NCBI GenBank assembly: GCA_951406725.2
Contig: OX597820.1
Location: 16,678,001-16,742,000, forward strand
Reading direction: 5' to 3'
DNA: 64,000 bases
From: Octopus vulgaris
Taxonomy: Eukaryota
Made by a program: the position numbers and the translations under genes. Of the stretch, positions 273 through 48,953 are shown piece after piece (position 1 is the stretch's first letter; every line of letters starts with the position of its first letter). The notes below the pieces were generated by a model, which was given only the letters and a program-made list of their open reading frames with translations, was not told the DNA's origin and did no database searches.

Positions 273-841
273 CTGTTCCTGAAAGTATGTATTTTGTTCT
301 CCTAAAGTAGAAAGGAAAGGAAAATTACTTTAGAATTAGTGGGTCATTTTCAGTCATACTGTAGAGAGGGACAGGGGGGGGGAGAAGAGAGAGAGAGAGA
401 GAGAGAGGTGAGAGAAAAATATGTGTGTGTATAATAATAATAATAATAATAATAATTATAGTAAATGTGAAATTCTGTCCATCCATCCGGGACCCTTGTA
501 TTTCAGTCTACATTTACTCTATATAGACATATTATACCTTTTTGGAACCAAGACAATCCCAAGATTGAAAATCTGCCCTTCATTTGGTTCTTGAACATCC
601 AGCATTGGGATCAGGTCTGGACGAGAATTTGTCATATGCCAACAGTTGGAAATTCAAATTTTAAAAGAACTCCCAAAATTTGTGAATTTACAAGTTTTAC
701 ATTTAAACTGAATTTAAAGTAATACCATATTGGTAGGGTACCAATGAATACTTTCTTATTAACTGCTCACCCTAGTTTTGGGCTGCAGGACCAATTAGCC
801 CACTGCAGGAGCTAGCAGGAGTGCGGCTTCGTTAGCTAGTA

Positions 842-885
<44 letters not shown>

Positions 886-887
<2 letters not shown>

Positions 888-1291
888 CACAGGAGTGGCT
901 GTGTCGTAAGTAGCTTGCTAACCAACCACATGGTTCCGGGTTCAGTCCCACTGCGTGGTATCTTGGGCAAGTGTCTTCTGCTATAACCCCAGGCTGACCA
1001 ATGCCTTGTGAGTGGATCTGGTAGACGGAAACTGAAAGAAGCCTGTCGTATATATGTATATACATATGCGTGTGTGTGTTTGTGTGTCTGTGTTTGTCCC
1101 CCTAGCATTGCTTGACAACCGATGCTGGTGTGCTTATGTCCCCGTCACTTAGTGGTTCGGCAAAAGAGACCGAAAGAATAAGTACTGGGCTTACAAAGAA
1201 TAAGTCCCGGAGTCGATTTGCTTGACTAAAGGCGGTGCTCCAGCATGGCCGCAGTCAAATGACTGAAACAAGTAAAAGAGTAAAGAAAGAG
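886..1291 (+). mobile_element. SINE family A, full length (tRNA-like head, CORE-like TTGGGCAAG segment, internal microsatellite, GTAAAAGA tail)
   Basis: Near-identical to many other copies in the window (e.g. 41311-41710, 63396-63793). Confidence 0.9.
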
Positions 1292-1310
1292 TATATATAT
1301 GTTACATATA

Positions 1311-2574
1311 TTGGGCCATCCCATAAATAATGTGGGTTTTTTTATACTTCTTTTATTTTTCAAAATTAAGATAAACAGAGTTCTTTTCTAATCTAAAATA
1401 CACTCTCCTTCATTTTCTACAATGCTCTTCCATCTATCCGATAGACTTGCAAGGCCCCTCTTTCAAAATTCACTTGTCCGTGACAAAAAATACTCCTCCA
1501 GTACTGTTCTGACCTTGTCTACAGAATTCATATTTTTTCCATCGAAATGATTTTGAAAACTGTGGAATAAATGATAATCAGGTGGGGCAATGTCCGGCGA
1601 TTTTGATGGGTGGGGTATCTTTTCTCATTCAAACTGTTCCAGCCTTTGGAATGTCATCCTTGCTGTATGTGGCTGAGCATTATCCTAATGGAAGAACACC
1701 CTCCATCTTGAGACCAAAAATGGTTGTTTTTCTTTTAGCACTGACTGAAGCCGCTCAAGCTGCTTGCAGCAGATCTCCTTTGTTATCGTTTGGTTTGGCT
1801 TTAAAAGTTCAAAGTGAACTAAACCTTTCATATCCCACTAAACAGATAACTACACCTACCATGGGTGAAGGCCTTCTTTAGCCTGGGGTGCCAGTGTGTC
1901 TCTATTCCCTACCTACTGTTTTGACATTTTTAGTGAGAACCCATTTCTCGTCACCAGTCACTATTCGGTCCAAAAATGGTTCATTCATGAGACGTGAAGG
2001 CAAAGAAGAGCACGCATTCATTCTCTGTGTGTAATTAGACTTGGAAAGTTTGTGAAGAACCCATTCACCCAATTTGCTGACTTTTCCGATGCCACGGTGT
2101 CGATGAATGGTTGAATGACCAAATCCAAGCTTCTTTGTTAGTTCCTCAACAGTTACATTGGGATTTTGTTCCACAAGGGTTTGCAGGATACCCTCATTGA
2201 GATCTACAGATCTTCCAGGACAAGGTTAATCTTCTAGGCTTTTGTTTCTGGAACCACTGTTGACACTGGCTTATGCTTATTATCCGATCCCCATATATTG
2301 CATTAATATTCCTCACACCTTCTGTTGTGTTGTTACCTTTATTGAATTCATAAAGCAAAATATACCAAATATGCTCCTTTGCCACTTCCATTATAGCTTT
2401 GAAAAAATAACTTAAAATCGAACTGCACTCTTCAAAACTTGCACTAAGAATAAGTACAAGGTAAAAATTACTACCTGCTTTTATAGCAAGTTGATGCAGG
2501 TAGTTTATCCCAATCCCCTCCAACTTTTAGTTCATGCAATCGAAAAAAAACTGCATTATTTATGGGATGACCCA

Positions 2575-2575
<1 letters not shown>
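1311..2575 (-). mobile_element. Full-length but decayed mariner transposon (Hsmar1/cecropia-like)
   Basis: TIRs TTGGG(C/T)CATCCCATAAATAATG at both ends with TA flanks; frameshifted transposase with EHIWYILLYEFNKG, KLGEWVLHKL, FLDRIVTGDEKWV. Confidence 0.9.
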
Positions 2576-2620
<45 letters not shown>

Positions 2621-2945
2621 TATGCTAGGTGTGCAATAAAATGAATGTGTTAGTTGTGATTCTTCACATTAGATGCCCTCTGCTGCACAACCCAGTGAGT
2701 TTCTGTGTGACCAATATAGGGTTATTTACGCTTCGTATTTCCACTTTGTTTTTATTGAGATAGAGAGAGAGAGAGAGAGGAGAGGAGAGAGGGAGACGGG
2801 GGAGTGGTAGGTGTGTTGGAGTTGAAACCCTGTCTTGTTTATTTCCCATTTTTTTTTTTGTTTTTTATTTTGGTTGCATTTTGATTTTCGAGTCATTGAA
2901 ATAATTAATAATTCCGTTTTGGCTTTTTTTTTTTTCTAATTGTAG

Positions 2946-3061
2946 TGCGGCATCAACAGCAGCAGCAGCAGCAGCAACAACAACAGCAACAACAGAACAG
3001 GATGCCCCTGCCATCTTCCCAAACGACCTTCAGTCAGCAACAGTTACGACACCTGCTGCAG
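2946..3061 (+). CDS. Internal coding exon of a polyQ protein (RHQ15NRMPLPSSQTTFSQQQLRHLLQ)
   Basis: Long T tract + ctaattgtAG acceptor (2944-2945); mixed CAG/CAA Gln codons; donor CAG|GTAATT at 3061/3062; ends in phase 0, compatible with the next exon. Confidence 0.8.
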
Positions 3062-3134
3062 GTAATTCTTTTTTTTTTTTTTTATTTTGGCCCCCACCAA
3101 ACCATTATTTTATTTATTCATTTATTTATATCAT

Positions 3135-3345
3135 CTTTTATTGGTTTCAGTCATAGGACTGTGGCCATGCTGGAGCACCACCTTTAGTCGAGCAAATCGA
3201 GCGCAGGACTTATTCTTTGTAAGCCTAGTACTTATTCTATCGGTCTCTTTTTTGCCGAAACGCTAAGGTACAGGGACGTAAACACACCACCATCGGTTGT
3301 CAAGCGATGTTGGGGGCACAAACACAGGCACACAAACATATACAC

Positions 3346-3411
<66 letters not shown>

Positions 3412-3573
3412 GACAGGCTTCTTTCAGTTTCCGTCTACCAACTCCACTCCCTAGGCTTTGGTCGGCCCGAGGCTATAGTAGAAGACTCTTGCCCAAGGTG
3501 CAACGCAGTAGGACTGAACCCGGAACCATGTGGTTGGTAAGCAAGCTACTTACCACACAGCCACTCCTACGCC
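3135..3573 (-). mobile_element. SINE family A, antisense, inside the intron of the polyQ gene
   Basis: Reverse complement of 886-1291. Confidence 0.9.
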
Positions 3574-3762
3574 TATATAACTTTAAAATAGGACCGTCGG
3601 GGCCCTTCGCTCGAAAGGTGGCTTAGTTTTAGAATGACGTTGTAGGGTAGGTGTGAGAGGCCAGTTATGGTCAGTTTGAATGCCAACCCGGGGTTAAAAA
3701 ACAAAATTTCAGTTTTTAACTGTTTTCCTTCTTCATCCTGACATCTCATTCCTGTATTGCAG

Positions 3763-3914
3763 CAGCAGCAGCAACAGCAGCAGCAGCAACAACAACAGCA
3801 GCAGCAGCAGCAACAGCAACAGCAGCACCAGCAGCCTAACCAACCGGCGGCACAACAAGCGGCCACCACGCAGCAGCAACACCACCACATGCGGCAGAAC
3901 CACATGCAGATGTT

Positions 3915-3977
<63 letters not shown>

Positions 3978-4125
3978 CCGCGTCCCGGTTTCTCAGTCGC
4001 ATAACGTGACGATGGGCTCAGCCCCAGGGCAACAGATGCCAGGGCCTCCGGGCATGGCACCCCCACCTTCAGGCATGCCTCAAACCGCAGGTCAGAACTA
4101 TGGTGAAGAGTTTGACCTGATGTAA
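3763..4125 (+). CDS. Probable terminal exon of the same polyQ/Pro-Gly-Met-rich protein (ends QNYGEEFDLM*); transcription-cofactor-like composition
   Basis: Pyrimidine tract and ttgCAG acceptor at 3760-3762, phase 0; GC-rich codon-like sequence; TAA at 4123-4125. An alternative weak donor CAG|GTCAGA at 4090/4091 cannot be excluded. Confidence 0.75.
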
Positions 4126-4161
4126 ACCTAATCTGACTGATATGATAATATCTTTAAACTA

Positions 4162-4175
4162 GTTGTCATGGCAAC
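4162..4175. promoter_or_regulatory. RFX X-box-like palindrome GTTGTCATGGCAAC
   Basis: Matches the GTHNYYATRRNAAC consensus; function untested. Confidence 0.3.
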
Positions 4176-4244
4176 TTGCCTAATTCCTCATCGCTTCCCA
4201 TCTAAACAACATTGATACTAATCCACACCCATCAATACATCACT

Positions 4245-4571
4245 GTGTATGTGTATATATATATGTATGTATATGTATGTATATATATGTATGTATATGT
4301 ATGTATATATGTATGTATATGTATGTATATATGTATGTATATGTATGTATATATATATGTATATGTATGTATATATATATGTATGTATATGTATGTATAT
4401 ATATATGTATGTATATGTATGTATATATATATGTATGTATGTATGTATATGTATATATATGTATGTATATGTATATATATGTATGTATATATATGTATAT
4501 ATGTATGTATATGTATGTATATATGTATATGTATGTATATATGTATATGTATGTATATATATATATGTATG

Positions 4572-4605
<34 letters not shown>

Positions 4606-4696
4606 TATGTATATGTATGTATATTTATGTATATATGTATATATATGTGTATGTATATGTATGTATATATATGTATGTATATTTATGTATATATGT

Positions 4697-4736
<40 letters not shown>

Positions 4737-4893
4737 GTATATGTATGTATGTATATGTGTATATGTATGTATGTATATGTATATATGTATATGTATGTAT
4801 ATATATGTATATATATGTATGTATATGTATATATATGTATGTATATGTATGTATATGTATGTATGTATGTATATGTATGTATATATATGTATG

Positions 4894-4964
<71 letters not shown>

Positions 4965-4979
4965 GTATATAAATGTATG

Positions 4980-5014
<35 letters not shown>

Positions 5015-5121
5015 GTATGTATGTATATATGTATGTATATGTATATATATAGATATGTATATGTATGTATATGTATGTATATATATATGTATGTATATAT
5101 ATATGTATATATATGTATATG

Positions 5122-5168
<47 letters not shown>

Positions 5169-5267
5169 GTTTCTATATGTATATATATGTATATATATGT
5201 ATGTATGTATATATATGTATATATATGTATGTATATGTATATATATGTATGTATATGTATATATATG

Positions 5268-7414: not shown

Positions 7415-7940
7415 CTTTTGTCGCCAGGGGCACGGTTGAACTTAGATCCTTAAGTTAAATCTTTTGGATATTTTTCTTTGTCTACAAGCTTGCATAAAAT
7501 GTTTATCCACGTATCTAAGAATGGCCCTACCCACGCAAAATGAGAAAGAGGAAGGAAACCAGATGAGTTTGCGGTGGTGCTTTTAGGCCGAGCATGTAAG
7601 TAACGTGGTTGTTAGACCCACTGGGTGCCAAAACAGCGTTATAGTAGGAAGCCGCTGTGTTGAAGACCTCTTTACAGGAGGAGGTCCTAATTCTGACACC
7701 GTTTACAAGGTTTTTAAACCCTATAGGTAGGTGGTAAGAAATTGTTTGTATGATAGCCTCTCGTTTGGTTTACAATAAGGCCTGTCTGATTCTGTGCCTA
7801 AATCATGTGTTACGCCCAAGAAATTAACTACGGTTATGTTGGGCTCAAGAAAATTAAGGGTGTAGATCAGGTCTTTCTTGAACCGGTGCAGAGTGTCCCC
7901 TTTCACATCTCCAAAGACGTCATCTCTATATAAGCTAACT
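7415..7940 (-). pseudogene. Penelope-like element reverse transcriptase fragment
   Basis: Minus-strand translation gives VSLYRDDV...VVNFLGVT.DL...RPYCKPN and later RYVDKHF, typical PLE RT/thumb motifs; frameshifted. Confidence 0.75.
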
Positions 7941-10708: not shown

Positions 10709-10930
10709 TTGTGTATATACGTATATATCATATGCGTACAGACGCAGGAGTAGCTGTGTGGTAATAAGTTTGCTTCCCAACCACATGGTTCCGGGTTCAG
10801 TTCCACTGCGTTGTACCTTGGGCAAGTATCTTCTGCTATAGCTTCGGACAAACCAAAAACCCTATGAGTGAATTTAGTAGATGGAAACTGAAAGAGGTCC
10901 GTCGTATGTGTATGTACATATATATATATA

Positions 10931-11268
10931 CGAGAAAGAAGCAACAAGAATGGATTAGTTTTTAGTACAATTGTTTCATACAAAGACAGGCTTTATTACA
11001 AGTTGCAAAAATTGCAGCAGATAAAAGTGTCCCGTACTCATCAGCTAAAATACATATGAGTTCTCCAAACATCTTAGTGGGTGAGGCTATACTCATGAAG
11101 TATTGGAGATAATTTTATTAAAGGCAGATTTAGGTTGCAAACAGATTTCCAAAGTTCCTTAATGATGATGCACTTTTTCTGCTGCAATTTTTGCAACTTG
11201 TAATAAAGCCTGTCTTTGTATGAAACAATTGTACTAAAAACTAATCCATTCTTGTTGCTTCTTTCTCG
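10931..11268. repeat. Inverted repeat, arms 10931-11029 / 11171-11268
   Basis: Arms are near-perfect reverse complements; spacer starts with a minus-strand CTGATGAG. Confidence 0.9.
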
Positions 11269-11384
11269 TTTATAATCACCCCACATTACTGTATGGTTAA
11301 CACCATATAGTTTTCTGGTGCATCTAAGTTAAGTACCACATTCAAGTAAATTCATTGGAATCGACTTGAATCTTAATTGCTTTG

Positions 11385-11957: not shown

Positions 11958-12263
11958 CTTTTACTCTTTTACTTGTTTCATTCATTTGACTGCGGCCATG
12001 CTGGAGCACCGCCTTTAGTCGAGCAAATCGACCCCGGGACTTATTCTTTGTAAGCCCAGTACTTATTCTATCGGTCTATTTTTGCCGAACCGCTAAGTGA
12101 CGGGGACGTAAACACACCAGCATCGGTTATCAAGCAATGCTAGGGGGACAAACACAGACACACAAGGCATTGGTCGGCCCGGGGCTATAGCAGAAGACAC
12201 TTGCCCAAGATGCCACGCAGTGGGACTGAACCCGGAACCATGTGGTTGGTTAGCAAGCTACTT
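11958..12263 (-). mobile_element. SINE family A with internal deletion, 5' end truncated
   Basis: Reverse-complement match to 886-1291, lacking the central microsatellite block. Confidence 0.85.
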
Positions 12264-12276
12264 ATATATATATATA

Positions 12277-12716
12277 GGTGGGGAATTTACGAAAAAAACA
12301 AAAGACGAAGATAGGTGGTGTAGACAACAAACAGATGTATTAGTATAACACTCGGAAAGTGAAAAAGTCTTTAACATTTCGAGCCTACGCTCTTCCACAG
12401 AAAGAAACAAGGGGAGATGTGTGTATGTACGTATGTATGTATGTATGTATGTATGTATACCTATGTGTGAGTGTGTCTTTGTGGTGTCCGAGTTTGTCCT
12501 CCATCACCGCTAGACAACCGGTGTTGTTGTGTTTACGTTCCCGTAAGCGGTTCGACGTAAGAGACCGAAAGAATGGTCTCTTACGTCGAACCGCTTACGG
12601 GGACGTAAACACAACAACACCGGTTGTCTAGCGGTGATGGAGGACAAACTCGGACACCACAAAGACACACTCACACATCCATCCATCCATCCATCCATCC
12701 ATCCATCCATCCATCC

Positions 12717-12784
<68 letters not shown>

Positions 12785-12920
12785 CCCCTTGTTTCTTTCT
12801 GTGGAAGAGCGTAGGCTCGAAATGTTAAAGACTTTTTCACTTTCCGAGTGTTATACTAATACATCTGTTTGTTGTCTACACCACCTATCTTCGTCTTTTG
12901 TTTTTTTTGTGAATTCCCCA

Positions 12921-12922
<2 letters not shown>
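12277..12922. repeat. ~645 bp fold-back palindrome built from a PLE-like terminal segment plus a SINE A 3' fragment
   Basis: Arms are reverse complements around an 8-nt loop (12567-12574); bounded by (TA)n. Confidence 0.9.
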
Positions 12923-12964
<42 letters not shown>

Positions 12965-19772: not shown

Positions 19773-19838
<66 letters not shown>

Positions 19839-19874
19839 GAAAGAATGGAGTCGAACGAAGATGTTAACAAAATT

Positions 19875-19967
19875 CCTTTACTCTCGACATATGTTTCGAA
19901 GACAACATGTTTTCATTCCAAAGGAATAAAGGGTGCATTATGCAATCTTCTCATCAGGAAAGAAAGG
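19875..19967 (-). ncRNA. Type I hammerhead ribozyme, canonical core
   Basis: Minus strand CCTTTCTTTC-CTGATGA-GAAGA...TCTTC-GAAAC-ATAT-GTC-GAGAG(T)AAAGG: 10-bp stem I with a 1-nt bulge, 5-bp stem II, palindromic stem III, GUC site. Confidence 0.8.
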
Positions 19968-20779
19968 GAGCCTCTCTCGACAACAAGACAAACAAAAATT
20001 TCGATGACTGCCTACATGGTAAACAAAACGATAATGAGTGTTTTTTTTAAAAAGCCGTTAGAAGAATTGACGTCAAAGATAGATAGTAGGAAGAGAATGG
20101 TTAAAGGAATAATAGGTAGGGAACAAGTGGAAAGGGAAGGGTACGTTGATTGAAAGAATGTTCGAAGGCTTAGGAAAGAATTTCGCTATTGAAGTGGGGT
20201 GGACGTAAATGCATTCAGGGATAGTAAAAAACGACATAGTACAGGGCTAAGTAAATTAGTTTGGCGTCTTAAAGACAATAATATAATTTTCAAGTTAGAT
20301 TGGTTCATATTGTCTGTATCCTTTCCTTTTGATAAGGGCAGGAGATTTTGTAACATTTGCAACTCTGAACTCTTCCATATTCTCTTCTCTAAGGTTCCCC
20401 TTGTAAACACACTCATAGAAAAATCATACAAATGTAAACACTGGCAGAAACATACTTTCTACTCATATAAATGATAACGATAGTCACTGTGGTTTGAACA
20501 ATTAGCTTTACGTCCACCCCACTTCAATAGCGAAATTCTTTCCTAAGCCTTCGAACATTCTTCCAATCAACGTACCCTTCCCTCTCCACTTGTTCCCTAC
20601 CTATTATTCCTTTAACCCTTCTCTTCCTACTATCTATCTTTGACGTCAATTCTTCTAACGTTTTTTTTAAAAAAACACTCATTATCGTTTTGTTTACCAT
20701 GTAGGCAGTCATTGAAATTTTTGTTTGTCTTGTTGTCGAGAGAGGCTCCCTTTCTTTCCTGATGAGAAGATTGCATAAT
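19937..20779. mobile_element. 5'-truncated Penelope-like element with inverted terminal repeat (arms 19937-20209 / 20507-20779)
   Basis: ~273-bp near-identical inverted arms enclosing a PLE endonuclease fragment. Confidence 0.8.
20210..20474 (+). pseudogene. C-terminus of a Penelope GIY-YIG endonuclease
   Basis: STGLSKLVWRLK...DWFIL...CNICNSE...LVN...KCKH..K matches the PLE endonuclease C-terminal pattern (ST.LSKYIW.LK..W.IL..CNLC..E..LLN..CRH). Confidence 0.75.
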
Positions 20780-20962
20780 CTTGCATTCATCGAAAACCTA
20801 CCCCACTATTTTCTTTTCTCCAAAAAAAGATAAGCTCTACTTTGTAATCTTTCCCCATCTGTGTGCAGCCCTGTGTGGCTAATAAAGAAACTTATCTATC
20901 AATCTATATATCAATCTATCTATCGGTTTGTCTGCCTGCCTGCCTACCTGCCTTACTGTCTG

Positions 20963-26147: not shown

Positions 26148-26226
<79 letters not shown>

Positions 26227-26342
26227 GAGGGCATTATTATACATAGATGCCACACGCTAAAAGGGACAAAAAGTCATTTCTACCAAAAATTTTACTAATC
26301 CCACCGAATGCAATCTTTCAAAGCAAGACATTTAAAAAACAT

Positions 26343-26391
26343 AGACTTGTATCACCTGTGATTTCGTACTTACGTACTCTTCAGCAAGCCT
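26343..26391 (-). ncRNA. Type I hammerhead ribozyme (copy 1)
   Basis: Minus strand AGGCTTG-CTGAAGA-GTAC-GTAA-GTAC-GAAA-TCACAGGTGA-TA-CAAGTCT: 7-bp stem I, 4-bp stem II, AUA site. Confidence 0.8.
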
Positions 26392-26799
26392 GAACGTATC
26401 ATAAATAAACGACCCTGTCTCGTCGAAGCCAAGCAGCTAACTGTTCAACGTCAACGAAGCACATGGGGGAGTTTACATATATTACATCCGGTAAATGGCA
26501 GGCTTCTTCGAATTGCATTTCGGGTAGGAAAAGTTTTTTCGGAATAAAATTATTTAGCAATTAAGGACAACTTCTTAATAAGGAATCTTAATAAGAAATT
26601 ATCAGGTAGATAGCGTGAAAAACCTCATAAGAGAAAAATTTCGAAAATAATTTTTTCTTATTGAACATATTAATTTATATATAGAGGGCATTATTATACA
26701 TAGATGCCACACGCTAAAAGGGACAAAAAGTCATTTCTACCAAAAATTTTACTAATCCCACCGAATGCAATCTTTCAAAGCAAGACATTTAAAAAACAT

Positions 26800-26848
26800 A
26801 GACTTGTATCACCTGTGATTTCGTACTTACGTACTCTTCAGCAAGCCT
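26800..26848 (-). ncRNA. Type I hammerhead ribozyme (copy 2, identical to copy 1)
   Basis: Same sequence 457 nt away. Confidence 0.8.
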
Positions 26849-26934
26849 GAACGTAAACGACCCTGTCTTCGTTGACGTTGAACAGTTAGCTGCTTGGCTT
26901 CGACGAGACAGGGTCGTTTATTTATGATACGTTC

Positions 26935-26983
26935 AGGCTTGCTGAAGAGTACGTAAGTACGAATTCACAGGTGATACAAGTCT
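26935..26983 (+). ncRNA. Hammerhead copy 3 on the opposite strand, core mutated (GAAA>GAAT)
   Basis: AGGCTTG-CTGAAGA-GTACGTAAGTAC-GAAT-TCACAGGTGA-TA-CAAGTCT. Confidence 0.6.
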
Positions 26984-27470
26984 ATGATTTTTAAATGTCT
27001 TGCTTTGAAAGATTGCATTCGGTGGGATTAGTAAAATTTTTGGTAGAAATGACTTTTTGTCCCTTTTAGCGTGTGGCATCTATGTATAATAATGCCCTCT
27101 ATATATAAATTAATATGTTCAATAAGAAAAAATTATTTTCGAAATTTTTCTCTTATGAGGTTTTTCACGCTATCTACCTGATAATTTCTTATTAAGATTC
27201 CTTATTAAGAAGTTGTCCTTAATTGCAATATATATATATATGTATGTATATATGTAGTATATATGACACCATGATAGATCGTTAGCCTACACACATTTTT
27301 TCTCTCCTTGATTCTCTCCTTGTTTTTTCTGTGTCCCTTTCTGTAGAAGAGCGTACGCTCGAAACGTAAAAGACCTTTTCTATTCCTGAGCGTTATACTA
27401 ATACATCTGTTTGTTTTGTACACCACCTGTCTTCATCTTTTGTTTTTTTCGTAAACTCTCCCTATATGTA

Positions 27471-47372: not shown

Positions 47373-48339
47373 TGTTTGTTGGAAACAGTAAAGCTTCCAA
47401 ATCCATCACCAATGTTTCTAGACTTTCGTAGTCATATCTTCTGAATGAAGTGATGTTGGTGTATGTTTCTCTTTTATAATAAACCTGGCCAATGTGATTA
47501 TTATAAACACCATTACTGGCGTTGGAGCTTTGCCCGATAGATGTGTACTGGATCAGTTATGTGTTCTTTTTCTTTTAGTGACTAGTGTATGTTGTTGTCT
47601 GTGTATCCATTTTAACTTTATACTTTGCTAACAATATTGCTTCCATCGTTGATCCTCTAGTTTTGTTTGGAATTCTGTATTGTCCACTAACGTTTTCATA
47701 TCCATCCATCCATCCATCCATCCATCCATCCATCCATCCATCCATCCTTCCTTCCATCCATCCTTCCATCCATCCATCCATCCATCCATCCATCCATCCA
47801 TCCATCCATCCATCCATCCATCCATCCATCCATCCATCCATCCATCCATCCATCCATCCATCCATCCATCCATCCATCCATCCATCTCCGCCTACAATTT
47901 CTTGGGTGGTCCTTAGGCGCCTCCTCCAAAGGTTCCTATACACTTTCCAATCCCTAGTCACTAGCAGTTGTTTTCTTTTGGACCCTTGTGGATGGATGGA
48001 TAGAAAAAACGTTTGTAGGCAATACATCTGTACCCTACAGAATTCCAAGCAAAACTAAAGGATCAACAATGAAAACAATATTGTTAGCAAACGATAGGCT
48101 TAAAATAAGTAGACAGACAACAACATACAATAATCACAAAAAAATGAATACATAACACATGTTGTACGCATCTAACGGGAAAAATTCCAATGCAAGTAAT
48201 GATGTATATAATATTCATAATAACTGTGCTTATTATAAAAGAGAAACATACGCCAACATCAATTCATCCTGAAGATATGACTACGAAAGTCTAGAAACAT
48301 TGGTGGTGGATTTGGAAGTTTACCTGCTTCAAACAAGCA
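47373..48339. repeat. Old ~305-bp inverted repeat (47373-47679 / 48036-48339) around (CCAT)n
   Basis: Arms are diverged reverse complements; hammerhead-like scaffold at 48261-48312. Confidence 0.85.
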
Positions 48340-48569
48340 TCATCCTGCGTGCTCCCACCCTTATACTTCCCAGAACAAGTCGGATGATATGGAAGTGGGT
48401 GAAGACCGATATATATTTCAAATGGACACTTCAACCGAAGATTCGAGCGAGTCCCTTGGTAACCCTCGCGACAGGTTTCTGTCTGGTTTTACTTAATGAC
48501 GAGTGGCGTAGCGCCAACAGGAAATTGTTATACTTTTAGGGTGGTGACTATAACAGTAGGAATTCTTTC

Positions 48570-48953
48570 ATTTTTTACGTGTTTCAGTCATTTGAATGCG
48601 ACCATACTGGAGCACCGCCTTGCAGGGCTTTAGCCGAACAAATCGACCCCATAACTTGTTTTTAAAGCTTTCTACTTATTCTATCGGTCCCTTTTCGCCG
48701 AACCGCTACGTTACAGGGACGTAAACATACCAACATCAGTTGTCAAGCGCTGATGGGGAACAAACACAGACAAAAATACACATACACACACGCGCGCGAC
48801 GGGCTAATTTCATTTTCCGTCTACCAAAACCACTCACAAGGATTTGGTCGCCCCGAGGCTATTGTAGAAGGCAATAGCCAAAGGTGTTACGCAGTGGGAC
48901 TGAACCCGGAACCATGTGGTTGGGAGGCAAGCTTCTTGCCACACAGCCACGCC
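48570..48953 (-). mobile_element. SINE family A, diverged full length
   Basis: Reverse-complement similarity. Confidence 0.8.

Follow-up and report, generated by a model that had tools for sequence, protein, structure and literature searches.

The window, i.e., the whole stretch of 64,000 nt of Octopus vulgaris DNA that we analyzed, carries at 19836-20779 a dead, 5'-truncated tail-end fragment of an abundant Penelope-like element (PLE) in which two copies of the element's 3' end stand head to head beside a (TA)n microsatellite. The features of the locus and its flanks are the following (window coordinates; + and - denote the strand):

19776-19835, no strand: (TA)30 microsatellite, likely insertion target, abutting the 3' end of the element
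19836-20209, -: the 3' end of the element in an inverted, 5'-truncated copy of 374 nt (273 paired and 101 extra)
19875-19967, -: type I hammerhead motif with conserved core, whole on the inverted arm only
19967-19958 with 19885-19875, -: hammerhead helix I, 10 bp with one bulged U
19957-19951, -: hammerhead core CUGAUGA
19950-19898, -: hammerhead helix II region, 53 nt, 6 closing pairs, branched, with an inner 8-bp hairpin at 19930-19912
19897-19894, -: hammerhead GAAA
19894-19887, -: hammerhead helix III, palindromic ACAUAUGU
19885-19886, -: predicted self-cleavage site 3' of GUC, placed from the conserved core (C17 = 19886)
20208-20215, no strand: head-to-head junction, where 20210-20211 match neither side and complete an 8-bp palindrome
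20212-20474, +: C-terminal stub of a Hydra-clade PLE GIY-YIG endonuclease as judged from its sequence, 88 codons, with its stop codon
20475-20506, +: first 32 nt of the 3' UTR, confined to the sense copy
20507-20779, +: sense arm (3' UTR), terminating within the ribozyme
20780-20788, +: nine junction letters that echo a hexamer 10 nt upstream, possibly templated end-joining filler
20789-20893, +: 3' remnant of an unrelated, far more abundant repeat with an AATAAA signal at its end and (TATC)n beyond

The paired inverted arms (19937-20209 and 20507-20779) are each 273 nt long and differ at 7 positions, 4 of them transitions, i.e., they are 2.6% divergent with private changes on both sides. This matches the preliminary description, which had noticed arms of about 273 bp around an endonuclease fragment, but the inverted arm continues beyond its paired part to a total of 374 nt (19836-20209). 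Its extra 101 nt are absent from the sense arm and extend to 19836, where they meet the TA run of 60 nt, and other copies share this sequence as far as the same end next to the TA run (loose ends at 19864). The inverted arm had been said to abut a long (TA)n; it is the end of the arm at 19836 that touches 19776-19835, and not the ribozyme, which lies 39 nt away. The sense arm does end inside the ribozyme at 20779 as first reported, 14 nt into helix II, so that of the ribozyme (20749-20779) nothing beyond helix I's 5' strand, the CUGAUGA core, and these 14 nt is left. Insertion into (TA)n, the listed preference of almost all Hydra-clade families (PMC8557442), is present at the left end, while the right end adjoins another repeat instead. 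An inverted, 5'-truncated copy at the 5' end is characteristic of PLE insertion units, and the locus has one. The one-sided tail of PLEs, which is 30-40 nt long and optional in published cases (PMC8557442; PMC3846280), is absent downstream of the ribozyme at this locus, where the two ends differ by 101 nt including two thirds of the ribozyme.

The open frame between the arms spans 20193-20474 (+), and its opening codons fall within the inverted arm; the true stub is approximately 20212-20474 because other copies of the element join it at 20212 (loose ends). It starts directly after the conserved R and H of the endonuclease, so that these residues and the GIY-YIG motif are lost and E, N, CxxC, and CxH are kept. 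The loose-end consensus of other copies at 20212 has R and H in frame (read by eye), so this copy was truncated at that point. Lacking the GIY-YIG motif, R, H, and a start, the stub cannot form an active enzyme, and the copy as a whole, which is also devoid of the reverse transcriptase (RT), is most likely inert.

A phmmer search with the stub returned 1061 relatives with E<=0.001, among which 21 reach 1e-10, and the arrangement CxxC..E...N...CxH seen in the stub recurs in 119 of the 150 relatives listed, with CxxCxxE in 141 of these 150. The Hydra clade is defined by CxxC and CxH together with an RT bearing RWK and DKT, a CxCX5C cysteine linker, and the lack of a CCHH motif (Craig et al. 2021, PMC8557442), and in the Fig. 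S7 alignment of the same paper, CxxC and CxH occur in the Hydra rows only and are absent from those of Penelope/Poseidon, Nematis, and Neptune. An RT lies upstream of the same domain in the longest matches (YRDD in 3 of the 150 listed, DKT in P0092) and is cut off in our copy. In P0092, the longest of those listed, the stub-like region is preceded by an RT (with both DKT and YRDD), a cysteine linker, and a YIG motif. The linker occurs in relatives, and its place lies upstream of the truncation point here. The stub runs to the stop codon, i.e., the endonuclease is C-terminal in the element as in the Hydra clade. Based on these signatures, we assign the stub to a Hydra-clade PLE, and its family appears to be distinct from the published Hydra-1_Obim, from which the locus differs in endonuclease and ribozyme sequences when compared by eye (PMC8557442). 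Naiad/Chlamys PLEs, which have an N-terminal endonuclease and no canonical hammerhead, were rejected as candidates given the C-terminal endonuclease and the hammerhead that follows it.

The peptide had already been taken for the C-terminus of a PLE endonuclease, with a profile search suggested as a check. Besides the Hydra-clade CxxC-E-N-CxH signature, this reading is borne out by a profile built from 78 relatives (the window's own row left out), which matches the stub alone among 2033 window segments (E 2e-30; profile positions 57-145 of 178), even though the GIY-YIG models of Pfam remain silent. Pfam made no GIY-YIG call for the stub (best match a GATA-like zinc finger with E 0.007, below the cut-off) or for 20 of its relatives and is therefore blind to Hydra-clade endonucleases. 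A word-index protein search for longer proteins found nothing, and a PDB sequence search with the endonuclease alignment gave 0 matches at E up to 1. The fold was studied on the relative P0009 (39% identical, pLDDT 91), as the GIY-YIG motif is cut off in our copy. Its predicted structure superimposes on I-TevI with Z 9.1 and an rmsd of 2.4 over 90 aligned residues, on T4 EndoII with Z 7.5, and on UvrC with Z 6.3. Foldseek with the same model returned nothing at E<=0.001, and the same enzymes were ranked at the top (best T4 EndoII, E 0.046).

The motif on the inverted arm has the hallmarks of a type I hammerhead, i.e., a core of CUGANGA and GAAA, an NUH triplet, and three helices. A full hammerhead at 19875-19967 and a cut between 19886 and 19885 had been proposed before, and we find the motif complete at this position and the predicted site in agreement with the conserved core (C17 = 19886). 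On the sense arm, the hammerhead core follows the endonuclease stop codon after 285 nt, and the element thus carried a canonical hammerhead near its 3' end in sense to the open reading frame. The proposed link of a hammerhead to a PLE coding region is therefore well founded, with the motif lying in the 3' end of the same element. A descriptor scan detected 4 hammerheads in the window compared to 0.01 on average across 200 shuffled versions of the 58,242 window bases that remain after microsatellite removal, and the strict form of the descriptor matched in 0 of 200 shuffles; because the descriptor was written after the motif had been seen, this result shows that the motif is not due to chance, not that the ribozyme works. 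Rfam gave no match at gathering thresholds over the window and, in a local search, no hammerhead at E up to 10 (its sole match was a chance one to a pestivirus model, E 5.7); the short-stem hammerheads of the window were missed by Rfam as well.

The minimum-energy fold of the motif already contains helices I and II, and the hammerhead fold lies 2.2 kcal/mol above it with a z-score of only -1.96. Palindromic helices III have been tied to dimer-dependent, weak cleavage (PMC4209133; reviewed in PMC6765202). The self-duplex of helix III is computed at -7.0 kcal/mol, and cleavage by the surviving motif is predicted to need a dimer formed through this palindrome. In the predicted fold of a read-through transcript, the 5' third of the motif is buried in the 273-bp duplex of the two arms, which makes it unlikely that the hammerhead acts at this locus.

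PLE hammerheads in terminal repeats have been published previously (PMC4209133), and the motif shares with those of metazoan PLEs its type I topology, conserved core, small palindromic helix III, and terminal-repeat location (Cervera and De la Pena 2014, PMC4209133). Compared to these, helix I of the locus is long (10 bp versus 4-5), and helix II contains an insert of about 40 nt with an inner hairpin. The locus resembles Hydra-clade PLEs in having CxxC/CxH around E and N, a hammerhead near the 3' end, and, at its left end, a likely (TA)n target, but it stands apart from the published Hydra families in its 53-nt branched helix II, which compares to no more than 26 nt in our own count over the 26 Hydra rows in File S2 (PMC8557442). 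It also differs from them in the perfect 8-nt palindrome of helix III and in the sense arm that is cut inside the ribozyme. Helix II regions of related loci range from 12 to 23 nt, and none of the 33 distinct motifs in the best 80 of these loci exceeds 23 nt, with a scan that allowed about 90. A precedent for a long helix II among PLEs comes from PLE-X1_sMoe of Selaginella, whose helix II also measures 53 nt (9 bp and a 35-nt loop; File S2, PMC8557442); this is, however, an endonuclease-less plant element targeting 28S rDNA, compared here by helix II length (PMC8557442). Our literature search retrieved no paper on a long-helix-II variant for Hydra-clade or cephalopod PLEs, though Lunse et al. 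2017 may cover it, and the "long helix II" of PMC13725137 is not equivalent, being 6 bp with a tetraloop.

The inner 8-bp hairpin of helix II has a z-score of -2.64 (1 of 200 shuffles), and variants among other copies of the family fit a helix II stem that has been kept: A common variant at 19944 replaces a U-U mismatch by a G-U pair, another at 19914 makes the inner hairpin perfect, and the loose-end consensus at 19903 would lengthen helix II to about 12 pairs, whereas the consensus at 19901 brings a mismatch unless compensated (the latter two read by eye). Elsewhere in the window, an unrelated family has a helix II of 60 nt (10955-11054) with a fold that is not significant alone (z -1.55). 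This unit (10925-11274) contains a long-helix-II hammerhead with its core at 11044 (-), a palindromic 8-nt helix III, and a GUA site; both of its arms reach the 3' end, the inverted one whole and abutting a TA run and the sense one starting within helix II at 11171. The two long-stem families (10955-11054 and 19875-19967) share no significant sequence, with a best match of 9 nt. It is conceivable, if rather doubtful, that the PLEs of this host possess a distinct hammerhead variant marked by a long branched helix II together with a helix III that forms a perfect 8-nt palindrome, in which the insert would be a conserved module such as a site of RT binding or pausing. Such a module would account for the breaks of both loci within the 5' strand of helix II and for the fact that, in other copies, 3 of 14 joints fall at the 5' edge of the ribozyme (19954-19961). 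These 3 of 14 head-to-head joints are too few to call a hot spot. The long helix II offers a ready variant for probing the role of PLE hammerheads.

A scan of metagenomes confirmed 165 relatives. The best 80 of the 165 were kept as loci; 76 match the stub, and 51 have at least 350 nt downstream. Among these 51 loci with downstream room, several of them redundant, 33 show a sense hammerhead 84-540 nt after the endonuclease. An inverted arm is found in only 2 of the 76 (L069 and L070, apparently one locus), and short contigs as well as the choice of loci by long matches to the open reading frame make such arms harder to see in this set. L069 contains at 946-2245 a Hydra-type head-to-head insertion with arms of 424 nt (96.5% identity) in which both arms keep the hammerhead and the sense side has a short tail, i.e., the intact form, and an internal deletion has taken out its GIY-YIG motif region.

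All or part of our stretch is contained in 20 runs from 8 studies under three organism labels; no RNA dataset is among these listed holders, which says nothing on expression. In four runs, 630-5214 contig pieces fall on the stretch; their depth peaks in the element's final 170 nt, as 5' truncation would lead one to expect. Out of 16 listed joints from other copies, 11 are plain joints of inverted arm to sense copy with varied breakpoints; the remainder comprises 3 opposite-strand joints that fit the same form, one 33-nt deletion, and one ambiguous case. The inverted arm ends at 19872-20166 in the plain joints, and the start points of the sense copy vary as well. Though supported by contig sides of no more than 22-57 nt at 85% likeness, the joints indicate that the family routinely inserts head to head. 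Of the 14 head-to-head joints, 6 have an inverted arm that ends at 19872-19954 and then lacks a whole ribozyme, so that a whole ribozyme on the inverted arm only is not a rule of the family. The longest listed pieces of other copies (32 of some 14,000) differ from the window by about 5-14%, and near-identical copies exist too, as 1310 of the 5214 pieces of run X1 are at least 99% alike. An exact 25-nt ribozyme pattern had 0 matches in metagenome contigs.

Taken together, we consider it probable that the locus derives from a high-copy, 5'-truncated Hydra-clade PLE of which two 3' ends were joined head to head, likely in one event, with the right end likely clipped later. What can be read off directly is the identity of the element, the hammerhead at its 3' end, the (TA)n on the left, the same kind of joints in other copies, and the unrelated repeat at the right end. 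Starting from there, the RT-endonuclease of the element would have cut (TA)n on both strands, and each DNA end would have primed reverse transcription from the RNA's 3' end. Both cDNAs would have halted early, after 374 nt on the left and about 670 nt on the right, and would then have been end-joined at 20209-20212. With less support, a deletion during repair or later may have removed the last 101 nt of the right copy plus any TA run, which would have fused helix II to the neighboring repeat. Such a course has a parallel in vitro, where a PLE protein with a predicted dimeric form cuts AT-rich DNA on both strands and extends both (PMC11167929). For this element, Poseidon PAc of Anolis (Frangieh et al. 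2024, PMC11167929), cutting and extension of both strands would yield two outward-facing 3' ends, and its hammerhead depends on protein but is not required for insertion in vitro. Poseidon PAc belongs to another clade, however, and has two RT starts downstream of the ribozyme about 30-40 nt apart, whereas the arms of our locus differ by 101 nt and break within the ribozyme. Inverted 5'-truncated PLE copies as such have already been published (PMC8557442, legend of Fig. 2; PMC3846280), and Penelope-13_HM of the Hydra clade is laid out in the same way, its 5' end bearing an inverted 5'-truncated copy and each of its strands having a listed hammerhead (PMC8557442). The papers bioRxiv 10.64898/2026.07.22.740005, PMC13282606, PMC7229834, and PMC3846280 leave our reading unaltered.

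The arms are only 2.6% apart compared to about 5-14% for the longest listed pieces of other copies, which favors one event over a scenario in which the family inserted twice, with the second insertion adjacent to or inside the first and oppositely oriented. The latter would draw on a high-copy family with many short pieces at least 99% alike and on the tendency of PLEs to insert beside earlier copies (PMC6765202), and given near-identical copies, divergence alone does not decide against it. Yet the central junction has no TA-rich target, the two arms resemble each other more than the window resembles long pieces of other copies, and the same type of joint recurs in other copies, making two insertions very unlikely. 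The 7 differences between the arms, with private changes on each, likewise speak against an assembly artefact, as do contigs from four runs that show joints of the same kind in other copies. Structures of this type do trouble assemblies (Craig et al., PMC8557442), and no listed contig covers the whole stretch, but we regard the chance of an artefact as close to negligible.

The 8-bp palindrome at the junction could point to an inversion by self-priming, i.e., fold-back on an antisense template and a subsequent template jump, a route suggested for rotifer Penelope, and palindromes at inverted junctions were interpreted in this way before (PMC3846280). Some joints of other copies are indeed near-perfect fold-backs (20031 to 20681; 20004 to 20717). 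A plain snap-back, however, cannot produce a layout with a single-copy stub of 297 nt between the arms, the palindrome needs two extra letters only and may be due to chance, and most listed joints have unrelated breakpoints on either side. We therefore view self-priming as quite unlikely and retain the joining of two cDNAs primed from the two target ends as the probable source of the junction. LINE-1 twin priming generates 5' truncation with an inverted segment on the 5' side like at our locus, but there the inverted part is the adjoining upstream segment and not a duplicated 3' end. Twin priming of the LINE-1 type was rejected because the inverted part duplicates the 3' end here.

For the right end, a deletion at the locus is the simplest reading. 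The one listed contig of the neighboring repeat aligns from 20789 only, and the summed contig depth in run X1, which is no copy number, rises from 55,000 at 20722-20764 to 1.4 million at 20851-20893; a second copy of this repeat (20789-20893) was not found in the window. The main rival to deletion is that the short right end is primary and arose from a second, internal RT start within helix II, giving a 101-nt version of the one-sided tail. PLE tails do come from two RT start sites, one of them in a stem-loop (PMC11167929), the tail of the unit at 26210-27228 is similarly long with about 120 nt, and the break falls in a structured stem. On the other hand, published tails measure 30-40 nt and lie downstream of the ribozyme, as in L069, the best-supported rows of contig pieces include no loose end at 19937 or 20779, and the right flank is not (TA)n but a junction with a filler-like stretch and a repeat. 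A minor recurrent end at 19937 may still lie among 558 further loose-end rows beneath the best-supported ones. An RT start inside helix II is thus improbable in our view, and the one-sided ribozyme is probably an accident of this locus, with its right end clipped, and not a rule of the mechanism. We also considered whether the right flank could be the 3' half of another hammerhead acquired by recombination in helix II and rejected this, as the descriptor detects no motif on the sense arm and the sequence after GAAA there is not palindromic.

The preliminary description had read the layout as a record of the insertion mechanism, and this stands with regard to the 5'-truncated insertion with an inverted copy, while the one-sided ribozyme looks like local damage. 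Its further view of the locus as the best template for interpreting other inverted repeats does not hold up, since the locus is damaged, whereas L069 and the unit at 26210-27228 keep the ribozyme on both arms and the usual one-sided tail. A hammerhead core is also missing from several further inverted pairs of the window. New here is one family within a clade that is already known; the layout has precedents, and the damage is peculiar to this locus. As a dead fragment with a published layout, the locus matters little on its own, but it adds an apparently uncatalogued high-copy Hydra-clade family missed by Pfam and Rfam, which is relevant to repeat annotation. Its many truncated copies would permit an end map that tests head-to-head PLE insertion and the influence of the ribozyme on breakpoints.

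Of the 11 inverted pairs of the window that were examined, five besides 19836-20779 have a CUGANGA..GAAA core in or near them (decayed in the case of 12263-12936, by eye). The remaining pairs are without a core, so that the locus does not explain all inverted repeats of the window. The unit at 26210-27228 is a textbook PLE unit of inverted copy, inverted partial tandem, and sense copy and cleaner than 19836-20779; it has three short-stem hammerheads at 26384, 26841, and 26942 (the last with an altered GAAA). TA runs flank it on either side, and its one-sided tail measures about 120 nt compared to 30-40 nt in published cases. At 12263-12936 (also 25341 and around 27340), an inverted pair of 156 nt and 99% identity has TA runs at both ends and a minimal-hammerhead-like motif, and its middle is occupied by a further inverted repeat of another element and microsatellites. 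At 47373-48339, 48269, and 48566-48772 lies another inverted pair with a hammerhead-like core at 48269 (+), close to which a weak tblastn match stems from a single protein, P0017. Finally, 7445-7939 (-) weakly matches a Hydra-type RT part in tblastn (P0008, 24%, E 2e-7) and is possibly a decayed PLE RT fragment.
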